NCBI GenBank assembly: GCA_938014335.1
Contig: CALLRP010000003.1
Span: 112,614-176,613, forward strand
Source: an uncultured bacterium
Lineage (GTDB): Bacteria > Hydrogenedentota > Hydrogenedentia > Hydrogenedentales > Hydrogenedentaceae
Length of the DNA stretch: 64,000 nucleotides
Reading direction: 5' to 3'
Below are positions 46,044 through 53,101 of this stretch, one piece after another. Position 1 is the stretch's first letter. Every line of letters begins with the position of its first letter. Under the pieces are notes generated by a model. It was not told where the DNA came from, made no database searches, and was given only the letters and a program-made list of their open reading frames with translations. The translations under genes and the position numbers were made by a program.

Positions 46044-46267
46044 AATAAAAATCCCTAATCATTTATTTTTTGAGATAACTTTTTGATTTGACTAACATTA
46101 TGCCAAAAGAGTTTTCAAGAAAAAAAATTGTTAAGTTTCCCTACCTGGAAAGATAAATATAACCCTGGAACAGATTATACAAACATACCTATAAAAATAG
46201 TTGAAAGAACTACCCTATTTATAATATAATCCTTTTCCATTATTTTTTCAAGGAGTTCCCCCTTAAA

Positions 46268-46726
46268 ATGGCTATTGAGCGGACTTTTGTTATGATAAAA
46301 CCGGATGGTGTCGCTCGTCGGCTTGTCGGCGAGTGCATCCGTCGTTTAGAAAAACGCGGTTTGAAATTGATAGCAATAAAAATGCAAATTTTGACCCGTG
46401 AAAAGGCAGAAGAACATTATCAAGAGCATAAGGGAAAAGACTTCTTTGAAAGTTTAGTCGGTTTTATCTGCTCAGGACCCACAGTTCAGATGGTCTGGGA
46501 AGGTGAAGACGCTATTCAGCAGGTTCGTAGTATGATTGGCACTACAAATCCATTAAAATCCCCTCCCGGAACTATCCGTGGAGACTTTGCACTCATAACA
46601 CAGATGAATATTGTCCATGCATCCGATAAGCCCGAATCCGCAGAGCGGGAAATATCGCTTTATTTCACGCCACAGGATATATTAGAATATAAAGCAGACG
46701 ATGAAAAATGGTTAACAAGTAAGTAA
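46268..46726 (+). CDS. ndk: Nucleoside diphosphate kinase
   Basis: [12 protein letters not shown]; active-site NIVHASD region. 152 aa. Confidence 0.92.
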
Positions 46727-46776
46727 AAGGGACATAACCTTTAATCAAATAAAAACTTAACAAAAGGAGTATTTTC

Positions 46777-46869
46777 GTGGCAGGTGGAAGAAAAGTTCGT
46801 AAACGCAAGATTAATAAGCATAAGCGTAAGAAGAAGAGACGCTTGAATCGTCATAAGAATAAAAAATAA
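46777..46869 (+). CDS. Unannotated 30-codon, extremely basic peptide (VAGGRKVRKRKINKHKRKKKRRLNRHKNKK), candidate bS22-like ribosomal protein
   Basis: GTG start 6 nt after an aaaaggag RBS. 24 of 30 residues are K/R/H. A strong hairpin terminator lies immediately downstream. Composition and length resemble ribosomal protein bS22 of Actinobacteria and Bacteroidetes ([20 protein letters not shown] type). Confidence 0.45.
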   Translation: MAGGRKVRKRKINKHKRKKKRRLNRHKNKK

Positions 46870-46883
46870 GATGACCATAGCCA

Positions 46884-46928
46884 CCCTATCCGGGAAAGGT
46901 CTGTTCCTTTCCCGGTATAGGGATATTT
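46884..46928 (+). terminator. Rho-independent terminator after the ndk/small-basic-ORF unit
   Basis: Long imperfect stem ccctatccgggaaagg / cctttcccggtataggg with a 6-nt loop, followed by an atattt U-rich tail. Confidence 0.55.
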
Positions 46929-46965
46929 AAATGGTTATTAAAACACTTTATAAGGGAGAACGGAT

Positions 46966-47403
46966 GTGAGTGACGAAGAAAAGAAAATCATTATTGACGA
47001 AGACTGGAAATCAAAAGTTCAGAAAGAGAAAGAGGAACTTCAAAAGAAGTTAGAAGAAGAAAAAGCCAAAAAGCCCGAAGGTGAAGAAACTTCTCCAGAA
47101 GAGCCGATTACTCCCTCATTTGAAACTATCGTAGGCATTCTAACAACAGATGCTATGCTGGCATTAGGTGTAATTGCCCCACCGGAAAGCCAACAAGTCA
47201 TTATTGATTTAGAACAGGCACAGTTTTTTATTGATTTGTTAACCATACTACGCGATAAGACCAAAGGCAATCTCTCTCCACAAGAAGAAGGTGTCCTTAC
47301 TAATTCTATTGCACAATTGCAAGAAATTTATGTAGTACGCCATCAACAATATCAAGAAGCACAACTACGACAAGCAGGAATAAAACCCACACCGGGACAA
47401 TAG
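46966..47403 (+). CDS. DUF1844-family acidic protein
   Basis: Acidic/K-rich N-terminus, conserved hydrophobic core (SFETIVGILTTDAMLALGVI), and C-terminal LLTILRDKTKGNLSPQEEGVL motif characteristic of DUF1844. Confidence 0.55.
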   Translation: MSDEEKKIIIDEDWKSKVQKEKEELQKKLEEEKAKKPEGEETSPEEPITPSFETIVGILTTDAMLALGVIAPPESQQVIIDLEQAQFFIDLLTILRDKTKGNLSPQEEGVLTNSIAQLQEIYVVRHQQYQEAQLRQAGIKPTPGQ

Positions 47404-47683
47404 CCCCTAAAGTTTTTATTCGGTTTCTTACCTATATCAGGAGTTTCATAGTAACAGAGATTTCTTTTGGATAAAATTTTCGTCATTCAACTAAAAATAA
47501 CCTTTCACCTCCCTATCATAAAAAAACCTATTTTCGAAGCATGAACTTGTAGTATTGAACATGGATACTCAATTATGATAATTTAAATTAAACAAATATT
47601 TTCCTTTTTGATATATCCGGAAAACAGGGTGTAGAAGTATGGGATATTTTTTTAATTTAATAAACGACATTCAGGGTTAAACA

Positions 47684-48472
47684 ATGACACAAGGAGGTAA
47701 TATCTCAGAAACAACACATAAATCGGTATTAGTAGTTATCCCTGCCCGTTATGGTTCAACCCGTTTCCCCGGAAAGATGCTTGTCAACTTATGTGGTTAT
47801 CCATTAGTGTATCATGTATACCTCCAGGCAAAGAAAGCAAGATGTGTTGGAGAAGTATTAGTAGCAACAGATGATGTGCGGATTCAGTCTGCGTTGGAAC
47901 CATTAGGAGTGCCCGTGGTAATGACACGGGCAGACCATGCGAGTGGAACCGACCGCATCGCAGAAGTAGCAGAAAAAAGGTCTGAAGAAATTATTGTTAA
48001 TGTTCAAGGCGATGAACCCTTACTCCCACCGGAATGCATTGATGCTACAGTAAAACCCTTATTAGAAGATACGCAAATTCAAATGTCAACTGCATGTCGT
48101 AATATCACAGACCCTTCCTGGATAGAAAATCCAAATGTGGTCAAGGTAATTACAAATCAGAAAGGACATGCTCTATATTTTTCTCGTTCCCCTATTCCCT
48201 ATATACGCGATGCAGAACAACGACAAAATATTGTGGGAATATACTGGCAACATATTGGTCTTTATGTCTATCGTCGCGCATTTTTACTTCATATTTCGAA
48301 ATTACCACAAACGCCTTTGGAAAAATTAGAAAAATTAGAACAACTCCGAGTGCTTGAAAACGGTTATTCTATTGCAGTGGTCCCAACTAATTATGAAGCG
48401 TTGGGAGTAGATACACCAGAAGATTTAATCCACGTAGAAAAAATTCTTAAATCAAGAGCAAAGGAAGTATAG
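47684..48472 (+). CDS. kdsB: 3-deoxy-manno-octulosonate cytidylyltransferase (CMP-Kdo synthetase)
   Basis: VVIPARYGSTRFPGKML and GTDRIAEV motifs. 262 aa. Adjacent to pyrG. Confidence 0.85.
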   Translation: MTQGGNISETTHKSVLVVIPARYGSTRFPGKMLVNLCGYPLVYHVYLQAKKARCVGEVLVATDDVRIQSALEPLGVPVVMTRADHASGTDRIAEVAEKRSEEIIVNVQGDEPLLPPECIDATVKPLLEDTQIQMSTACRNITDPSWIENPNVVKVITNQKGHALYFSRSPIPYIRDAEQRQNIVGIYWQHIGLYVYRRAFLLHISKLPQTPLEKLEKLEQLRVLENGYSIAVVPTNYEALGVDTPEDLIHVEKILKSRAKEV

Positions 48473-50137
48473 ATGGCTAATACAAAACCACCCTTGAAAT
48501 ATATCTTTACCACAGGCGGTGTTGTTTCTTCTATTGGGAAAGGAATTGCCTGTGCCAGTTTAGGATTGCTTTTAGAATCTCGAGGTTATAAAATTGCCAT
48601 TATGAAAATGGACCCCTACATTAATGTGGACCCAGGCACAATGAATCCCTTTGAGCATGGAGAAGTATTTGTCACCGATGATGGTGCGGAAACAGACCTT
48701 GACTTAGGCCATTATCAACGGTTTACTCATGCTAAATTGTCACGTAGAAGCAACACAACGACAGGGGCTATCTATAACACCGTAATTCAAAAGGAGCGTG
48801 ACGGTGCCTATTTAGGGAAAACCGTTCAAGTGATACCGCATATTACCGATGAGATAAAAAATCGTATTCGCGCATTGACCGTAGATGAAGATGATGTGGA
48901 CATTGCCATAATCGAAATTGGTGGGACTGTCGGTGATATTGAAAGCCTTCCTTTCCTTGAAGCATTGCGACAGTTTCGATTAGAGGTAGGTCCCGAAAAT
49001 TGCTGTTTTATTCATGTTACCTTAGTCCCCTACATCGAAGCGGCAAATGAATTGAAAACGAAGCCTACACAACATAGTGTCCGTGCTTTGCGTGATATTG
49101 GTATCCAACCCAATATTATCATCTGTCGAACAGGTGTAAGCAAACTTGAAAAAGAACAAAGACAAAAAGTAGCGTTATTCTGCGACGTGGCAGAAGAAGC
49201 CATTATTAATGCGCAGGATATTTCCCCCATTTATGCCATTCCTCTTAATTTCAAAGAGCAAAATCTGGATGTTACTGTATTAAAAATATTGGGTCTGGAA
49301 GTGCGAGAAGGGAACCTATCCGAATGGATTAATATAGTGAACCGACTGGTTTCTGCCACCGAAGAAGTATGTATTGCGGCAGTGGGGAAATACACCGGAC
49401 ATGGGGATGCATATAAAAGTATTAATGAAGCATTTGTTCATGCGGGTATCGCCAATAATTGCAAAGTAAAATATGAATGGATTGACTCAGAACGATTTGA
49501 TCCAGGGAAAGAAAAGCCAGAAGATGTTCTGAAAGGATACCATGGAATTTTGATAGGACCCGGTTTTGGGACTCGTGGGATTGAAGGGAAAATCAATGTA
49601 GCGCGATTCGCTCGAGAAAATGGCATACCCTATTTCGGTATATGTTTAGGCATGCAGGTAGCCGTCATTGAGATGGCTCGGAATTGCTTAGGGCTAAAGG
49701 AGGCTCATACCACAGAGGTAAATCCACAAACTCCACATCCTGTAATTTCACTCCTCACAGAACAAAAAGGAATTTCCTCGAAAGGGGGTACGATGCGTTT
49801 AGGAGCCTATCCCTGTGAATTACAGCCCAATACACTCGCTTATCAAGCATATGCACAAACGCTGATTTATGAACGACATCGACACCGCTATGAGTTTAAT
49901 AATGCTTACCGTGAAGATTTCGAGAAAAAGGCCGGTATGATTATAAGCGGGATACATCGGCGGAAATTCATGGACATGGAAGAAGAACTTACGGAAGTGA
50001 TAGAGCTCAAAACAGATCGCCATCCGTGGTTCTGTGCTTGTCAGTTCCACCCTGAATTTAAGAGTACACCTCTAAAACCACAACCGCTTTTCTGTGCCTT
50101 TATAAAGTCTGCTCTTAAATACAAAAAAGTGAAATGA
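48473..50137 (+). CDS. pyrG: CTP synthase
   Basis: N-terminal synthetase domain (KYIFTTGGVVSSIGKG) and C-terminal class-I glutamine amidotransferase triad (GICLGMQ ... HPEF). 554 aa. Confidence 0.95.
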   Translation: MANTKPPLKYIFTTGGVVSSIGKGIACASLGLLLESRGYKIAIMKMDPYINVDPGTMNPFEHGEVFVTDDGAETDLDLGHYQRFTHAKLSRRSNTTTGAIYNTVIQKERDGAYLGKTVQVIPHITDEIKNRIRALTVDEDDVDIAIIEIGGTVGDIESLPFLEALRQFRLEVGPENCCFIHVTLVPYIEAANELKTKPTQHSVRALRDIGIQPNIIICRTGVSKLEKEQRQKVALFCDVAEEAIINAQDISPIYAIPLNFKEQNLDVTVLKILGLEVREGNLSEWINIVNRLVSATEEVCIAAVGKYTGHGDAYKSINEAFVHAGIANNCKVKYEWIDSERFDPGKEKPEDVLKGYHGILIGPGFGTRGIEGKINVARFARENGIPYFGICLGMQVAVIEMARNCLGLKEAHTTEVNPQTPHPVISLLTEQKGISSKGGTMRLGAYPCELQPNTLAYQAYAQTLIYERHRHRYEFNNAYREDFEKKAGMIISGIHRRKFMDMEEELTEVIELKTDRHPWFCACQFHPEFKSTPLKPQPLFCAFIKSALKYKKVK

Positions 50138-53024: not shown

Positions 53025-53101
53025 TGGCGCGCCCGGCGGGATTTGAACCCACGGCCCCTTGCTCCGGAGGCAAGTGCTCTATCCAACTGAGCTACAGGCG
53101 C
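53025..53101 (-). tRNA. tRNA-Arg (anticodon CCG)
   Basis: Reverse complement folds as a 77-nt cloverleaf: acceptor GCGCCTG/CGGGCGC, D-arm GCTC-AGTTGGATA-GAGC, anticodon arm CTTGC-CTCCGGA-GCAAG, T-arm GTGGG-TTCAAAT-CCCGC, encoded CCA. It matches E. coli tRNA-Arg(CCG) closely in the acceptor, anticodon and T arms. Confidence 0.9.

Follow-up and report, generated by a model that had tools for sequence, protein, structure and literature searches.

We found that a 30-codon open reading frame, lying between ndk and a DUF1844 gene in DNA of an uncultured member of the Hydrogenedentota, is in all likelihood (a probability of roughly 0.87) a real gene whose product is a hyper-basic, helical ribosomal protein of 30 residues, a member of the bS22 family in the short form known from Borrelia and Bacteroidota. 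By sequence comparison, its product is homologous to bS22 proteins that have been placed in ribosome structures. The stretch analyzed, hereafter the window, is 64 kb long (64,000 nucleotides; 39% GC). The features of the window on which the argument draws are as follows.

46201..46230, + strand: promoter-like site TTGAAA-18-TATAAT upstream of ndk, with 11/12 consensus matches
46268..46726, + strand: ndk, nucleoside-diphosphate kinase (NCBIfam NF001908, E 1.8e-60; Pfam NDK, E 1.9e-56)
46764-46769, + strand: Shine-Dalgarno sequence AAGGAG, 7 nt spacer to the GTG
46777..46869, + strand: very probable bS22-type ribosomal protein gene (the micro-ORF), GTG start, 30 codons and TAA, recognized by conservation and by homology to structurally placed bS22
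46884..46922, + strand: GC-rich hairpin, 15 nt past the micro-ORF stop, with a 16-bp stem, one bulge and a 6-nt loop
46966..47403, + strand: DUF1844 gene, GTG start (PF08899, E 2.7e-17)

The protein bS22 was first seen in mycobacterial ribosomes and later reported from C. acnes (PMC10085706) and B. burgdorferi (PMC10618245). The F. johnsoniae protein is Fjoh_1533, a 30-aa 'hypothetical protein' (PMC7797042), and a 30-aa protein of P. gingivalis has been modeled as bS22 (PMC12123416). It binds in a pocket formed by 16S h2, h27, h44 and h45, and it contacts 23S H67-H70, which results in an extra inter-subunit bridge (PMC10618245, PMC7797042, PMC10085706). Mitochondrial mS38 and eL41 have been reported in the same small-subunit pocket (PMC10618245, PMC10085706), and whether the three proteins are homologous or convergent is debated (PMC12123416). 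By homology, the micro-ORF peptide would likewise insert into the 30S rRNA pocket of 16S h2, h27, h44 and h45, and its C-terminal part would contact 23S H67-H70, giving an additional bridge between the subunits close to the decoding center.

The sequence-only reading of this DNA had described an unannotated, hyper-basic, GTG-started ORF of 30 codons at 46777-46869, and its coordinates, its + strand and its two neighbors (the latter by profile matches) proved exact. The ORF begins 50 nt past the ndk stop and ends 96 nt before the DUF1844 gene, and its product is a 30-aa peptide, MAGGRKVRKRKINKHKRKKKRRLNRHKNKK. K+R make up 18 of its 30 residues (60%) and K/R/H 20 of 30 (67%); both size and basicity fall within the range of bS22 (a stand-alone peptide of ~28-33 aa with 55-65% K+R, the basicity being as quoted in PMC10085706). 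It is the only hyper-basic one among the small ORFs of the 64-kb window, and the runner-up, with 48% K/R/H, lies out of frame within the DUF1844 gene as a shadow of it. Since an in-frame TAA at 46750-46752 is followed by no ATG, GTG or TTG until the micro-ORF GTG, this GTG is the first canonical start, and it aligns exactly with the ATG of 11 orthologs. The ribosome binding site noted by the sequence-only reading is present, but its spacer is 7 nt rather than the 6 nt claimed. The exact peptide was not found among ~15 billion predicted proteins, in which the proteins of both neighbors are present, and therefore the micro-ORF was never called, as its description as unannotated implied. AlphaFold2, run on the single sequence, predicted one helix over residues 5-27 (pLDDT 92.7), which is in keeping with bS22 but not diagnostic, most K/R-rich peptides being predicted as helical; the bend characteristic of bS22 was not predicted for the isolated peptide without rRNA.

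We scanned 82 loci with neighboring genes for small basic ORFs and repeated the scan by profile on six-frame stop-to-stop segments. In 15/15 Hydrogenedentota-type loci that have upstream sequence (the window, L003-L012, L014, L015, L017 and L031), ndk and DUF1844 flank the same peptide of 29-30 aa; conservation downstream of ndk in relatives was a check that the sequence-only reading had proposed. Two further contigs, L001 and L002, which are near-identical, carry it as well. All 15 loci preserve the order ndk, micro-ORF, DUF1844, with gaps of 23-95 nt from ndk to the micro-ORF and 63-295 nt from there to DUF1844. Compared over codons 2-29, the 28 that follow the start, the ortholog peptides match that of the window at 23-29 of 29 residues (79-100%), and 21 of the 29 aligned columns are invariant among the eight distinct variants; identity to the window across the same loci is 55-90% for ndk and 39-85% for DUF1844. 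The peptide stays constant across loci that differ in GC from 39% to 68%. Within 3 kb of their DUF1844 genes, the distance to which this result applies, the Planctomycetota loci do not hold the micro-ORF.

Several observations on the neighborhood accompany this distribution. The closest relatives of the window's DUF1844 protein are in Candidatus Hydrogenedentota MAGs, that of L004 (Candidatus Hydrogenedens sp.) being 85% identical, and Planctomycetota hold more distant ones. In both phyla DUF1844 is found beside kdsB and pyrG: the window (46966-50137), L003 and L004 have DUF1844-kdsB-pyrG, and most Planctomycetota loci among L018-L082 have (kdsB-)pyrG-DUF1844. Elsewhere in the Hydrogenedentota, the 3 kb around DUF1844 contain neither kdsB nor pyrG, yet the ndk-bS22-DUF1844 order persists. 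The apparent GTG start of the window's DUF1844 gene is preceded by AAGGGAGA, and an ATG two bases upstream, at 46964, is out of frame and runs into a TGA. Five loci with the triad (L003, L005, L009, L010 and L031) are labeled Nitrospirales/Nitrospiraceae, Rhodopirellula sp. or Bathyarchaeia archaeon; these labels likely reflect mis-binned contigs or wrong taxonomy. The bin of L005 also holds a Planctomycetota-type DUF1844 locus (L044).

To compare the peptide with proteins of known structure, we searched 177,635 distinct PDB sequences (E<=10), with phmmer for the single peptide and with a profile of the eight Hydrogenedentota variants. The single peptide matched three chains only: 8fmw_V, the B. 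burgdorferi bS22 (E 0.002, 17/26 identical), 7jil_5, the F. johnsoniae bS22 (E 0.026), and 9i5v_10 from P. gingivalis, deposited as an AURKAIP1/COX24 domain protein (E 2.5). All three alignments are ungapped and run from residue 1 or 2 to within one residue of the chain end. With the profile, the same chains gave E 3.5e-6 (30.4 bits), 3.9e-4 and 0.77, respectively, and the mitochondrial mS38 chain 8a22_BC, which the single peptide did not match, appeared at E 0.35 (RKLKIKKHKLRKRRKANR). The best and essentially sole PDB matches are thus bS22 chains from ribosome structures and mitochondrial mS38. Mycobacterial bS22 and eL41 were matched by neither query at E<=10. As short and strongly biased sequences yield modest E-values, with HMMER bias terms of 10-27 bits that approach or exceed the scores, we also used composition-preserving shuffles of the peptide. 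None of 200,000 scored as high as the peptide itself in ungapped BLOSUM62 comparison with the Borrelia or the Flavobacterium bS22, and 13 of 200,000 did so against the P. gingivalis protein. Residues other than K and R that are common to the micro-ORF peptide and the structurally placed bS22 are G4, I12, H15, N24 and H26.

The reciprocal search used a profile built from the three structurally placed bS22 alone against 16,764 six-frame segments, the window contributing 2,558. The 17 micro-ORF copies took the top 17 places (E 4e-8 to 6e-3), followed by a segment at E 0.94; within the window, the micro-ORF came first (E 0.0039) and the next segment had E 7.4. By profile, shuffles and reciprocal profile, the similarity to density-placed bS22 extends beyond composition. 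The sequence-only reading had called the peptide bS22-like and had quoted a mycobacterial fragment, which is correct (residues 6-25 of mycobacterial bS22 chains). These searches bear out the likeness and the assignment to a ribosomal family, but place the resemblance with the Borrelia/Bacteroidota type rather than with the mycobacterial one. On the sequence comparison, the detectable similarity is to the 28-30 aa type (…HKRKKxRRxNRHK…), and the tie to mycobacterial bS22 comes from published structural superpositions, not from sequence.

The AURKAIP1/COX24 profile, which the sequence-only reading had proposed as a check, did not recognize the peptide. Pfam PF08213 COX24_C gave 8.8 bits (E 2.1), below the gathering threshold of 23 bits, and seven of eight orthologs gave sub-threshold matches over profile positions 6-30, the best at E 0.048. 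In a calibration, however, the same profile gave no match to the structurally placed Borrelia or Flavobacterium bS22, and the P. gingivalis bS22 reached 11.8 bits. Because structurally placed short bS22 miss the threshold too, this failure is uninformative on bS22 membership; the Pfam family reflects the mitochondrial and actinobacterial type, and the short type lies outside its coverage. No NCBIfam family matched the micro-ORF peptide at E<=10.

The closest counterpart is the B. burgdorferi bS22 (bb0822, 8FMW chain V). Its gene, like the micro-ORF, has 93 nt and a GUG/GTG start and was missed by annotation (PMC10618245). Both proteins have ~60% K+R and the core HKRKKKRRxNRHK, and the 17/26 identities, ungapped, include the five shared non-K/R residues. 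They differ in phylum and N-terminus (Spirochaetota and MPCGRK for Borrelia, Hydrogenedentota and MAGGRK for the micro-ORF), and the Borrelia protein has been placed in cryo-EM density whereas the micro-ORF protein is known from sequence alone. Mass spectrometry in the Borrelia study failed to pick up bS22 (PMC10618245). The Bacteroidota bS22 (7JIL chain 5, 9I5V chain 10) share the length of 30 aa, the ungapped end-to-end alignment and the pattern xxGxK…HKRKKxxxxNRHKxK, at an identity of 14-15/29; the F. johnsoniae and P. gingivalis genes were also annotated as hypothetical before the structures. Bacteroidota largely lack Shine-Dalgarno sequences, in contrast to the micro-ORF and all its orthologs, which have a clear site. 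Actinobacterial bS22 (M. smegmatis, M. tuberculosis, C. acnes; 5O5J, 5O61, 8CRX) is a tiny hyper-basic helical peptide as well, tied to the same pocket via the Flavobacterium and Borrelia structures. At 33 aa it is three residues longer than the micro-ORF peptide, its motif order differs from the NKHKRKKKRRLNRHK of the latter, neither the single peptide nor the profile matched it at E<=10, and it is the type that NCBI names 'AURKAIP1/COX24 domain-containing protein'. Mitochondrial mS38 (AURKAIP1/Cox24) is much longer, and only its C-terminal helix corresponds to the micro-ORF peptide. For eL41, of the cytosolic and archaeal ribosome, there is no sequence match at E<=10.

As association with the ribosome in Hydrogenedentota is drawn from homology, we considered whether the peptide might be free in the cell, sharing ancestry or composition with bS22 and having its main role elsewhere, as an antimicrobial, a cell-penetrating peptide, or a binder of nucleic acid or polyphosphate. 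We regard this as improbable. The peptide has no signal peptide, no export or immunity gene adjoins it, and its neighbors are the housekeeping genes ndk, coaD, kdsB and pyrG. Near-invariance across the phylum would seem to fit a ligand of an rRNA pocket better than an antimicrobial peptide. Moreover, the antimicrobial activity of C. acnes bS22 is a side property of a true ribosomal protein (PMC10085706); by analogy, an antimicrobial or nucleic-acid-binding role would here be a secondary activity at most.

Several very small basic ribosomal proteins exist, and the micro-ORF could encode one other than bS22 (bTHX, or a bL38-like, bL37-like or eL41-like protein). The naming of the F. johnsoniae chain lends this some color: the 30-aa sequence u123360 (7jil_5 and four other entries) is deposited inconsistently, both as '30S ribosomal protein S22' and as '50S ribosomal protein L38'. 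That same sequence is nevertheless described as bS22 (Fjoh_1533, PMC7797042), as is the modeled P. gingivalis 30-aa protein (PMC12123416), and the PDB searches at E<=10, with peptide or profile, returned bS22, AURKAIP1/COX24 and mS38 chains and no bTHX, bL37 or eL41. A different tiny ribosomal protein is therefore very unlikely, and we retain the assignment to bS22.

The micro-ORF would, from the anatomy of the locus, be translated from its own Shine-Dalgarno site and GTG, on a transcript probably shared with ndk and starting from 46201-46230. The site there is the probable predicted promoter of an ndk-bS22 transcript. The next promoter-like sites on the + strand are one inside ndk (46391-46420) and then none until 47555, and in the 50 nt that separate ndk from the micro-ORF a consensus scan found neither promoter-like nor terminator-like sites. 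Downstream, the transcript would end at the hairpin or be stabilized by it. The sequence-only reading had spoken of a strong terminator belonging to the ORF. The hairpin is indeed strong (-36.4 kcal/mol for the whole fold of the region, z -6.6, with 0/200 shuffles as stable), but the tail on its 3' side, ATATTTAAATGG, makes a poor U-tract, and on the + strand no terminator was called here by the consensus scan. In the minimum-energy fold, an outer 9-bp stem pairs 46870-46878 with 46931-46939 and encloses the inner hairpin; outer pairing of a similar kind is seen in L004 (aaccag…ggtt). Two close relatives, L003 and L004, retain the hairpin, L003 with a single compensatory change from C-G to U-A, and other loci carry a different, unrelated strong hairpin in the same gap, in several cases followed by T-runs. 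Strong hairpins in GC-rich DNA are weak evidence on their own, and the element at 46884..46922 is probably a terminator or a 3' stabilizing stem.

A strong hairpin between the ORF and DUF1844 in the window and in every orthologous locus, together with an ORF-DUF1844 linkage conserved across the phylum, is also what a leader peptide (uORF) would leave, in which translation and hairpin control read-through into DUF1844-kdsB-pyrG and the peptide itself is irrelevant. Such peptides conserve few regulatory codons, not 21 of 29 aligned columns, and they would not show essentially end-to-end homology to proteins seen inside ribosomes. In addition, the hairpin starts 15 nt past the stop with no alternative pairing that overlaps the ORF, Planctomycetota DUF1844 genes have no such ORF within 3 kb, and no known RNA regulatory family matches: an Rfam scan found none at or near the micro-ORF locus. 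The single tRNA gene at 53028-53101 (- strand) is the only Rfam match at the gathering threshold in the 64-kb window. Because what is conserved is the amino-acid sequence and not just its translation, and because that sequence has a ribosomal protein as its homolog, we give the leader-peptide explanation little credence and favor a gene for bS22.

The substitution pattern of the micro-ORF is that of a protein; the sequence-only reading had named a pattern unlike that of a protein as refuting it. In the ORF frame, pN/pS is 0.14 (pS 0.67, pN 0.094), compared to 2.6 and 1.5 in the other two same-strand frames, and variable columns are distributed 8/8/26 over the three codon positions. An AGGAG, GGAGG or GGAAGG motif stands at equal distance from the start in all 15 loci, and start and stop are kept at homologous positions, despite flanks that are otherwise unalignable. 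Of these loci, 11 start with ATG; the window, L003, L004 and L017 use GTG. The micro-ORF is a protein-coding gene under strong purifying selection, conserved across Hydrogenedentota: this selection is lineage-wide, with the peptide in 15/15 loci, pN/pS of 0.14 and 21/29 columns invariant.

Two antisense ORFs of 47 aa, at 46665..46808 and 46741..46884 (- strand), were rejected as coding. The exact antisense frame is open in all orthologs for compositional reasons, since the ORF contains no TTA, CTA or TCA codons, and has pN/pS of 1.9; the antisense frame that shares wobble positions has pN/pS of 0.28, and stops interrupt it both in the window and in 6/14 orthologous loci.

The chance of an untranslated spacer, A-rich in a genome of 39% GC and reading as Lys/Arg codons, is negligible: although the ORF is short, GTG-started and uncalled, AT-rich DNA makes many AAA/AAG codons and the antisense -1 frame is open in all orthologs too, the open frame is accounted for by the missing codons, no other ORF of such a kind exists in the window, and the conserved positions of Shine-Dalgarno site, start and stop and the protein-like substitutions, with synonymous change saturated in 15 loci of 39-68% GC, exclude it.

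Public annotation has largely passed over this gene. In a library of 1.84 billion representative proteins, three match the peptide at E<=1e-3, all of the Hydrogenedentota type; with one query of 30 aa, other phyla are out of reach in a library of this size, and the result says nothing on wider distribution. Two of the three are over-extended calls (P0013, 60 aa; P0012, 124 aa), which run 31-95 residues upstream into non-coding DNA and take the GTG start for an internal Val ('…EDSRVAGGRKARKAKINKHKRKKKRR…', '…RVAGGRK…'). Over-extension is a systematic gene-caller error on GTG-started micro-genes. The commonest ATG-started ortholog, P0014, is found on 241 contigs under no name other than 'hypothetical protein'. 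A full-text literature search found no paper linking Hydrogenedentes to bS22. The Borrelia authors predicted bS22 in other bacteria and noted that short length and non-canonical starts defeat annotation tools (PMC10618245). Our result is what they predicted and is not very surprising, but it is useful for annotation, where it exposes a blind spot: the GTG copy is uncalled, two relatives are over-extended, the ATG-started orthologs are 'hypothetical', and Pfam misses proven short bS22.

Most likely, then, the micro-ORF adds the phylum Hydrogenedentota to the known bS22 family, without being anything new in kind. Three phyla, Spirochaetota, Bacteroidota and Hydrogenedentota, are now known to have the short 'NRHK-type' bS22, in each case as a micro-gene that was uncalled or labeled 'hypothetical'. 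We put forward only as a tentative and rather doubtful extension that short bS22 is, on this account, ancient and widespread in bacteria rather than lineage-specific, which would back a universal S22 (bS22/mS38/eL41) lost in model organisms, and that the phylum-wide ndk-bS22-DUF1844 linkage marks DUF1844 as a ribosome- or translation-associated factor. The Hydrogenedentota protein is one more data point for widespread bS22, and the extent of that spread matters for the proposed renaming of bS22, mS38 and eL41 as a single universal protein. bS22 adjoins the aminoglycoside site on h44, a proximity that carries little practical weight for an uncultured environmental lineage. In conclusion, the window gains a missing gene, and a candidate phylum without a solved ribosome structure among the PDB matches gains a probable component of its 30S subunit.
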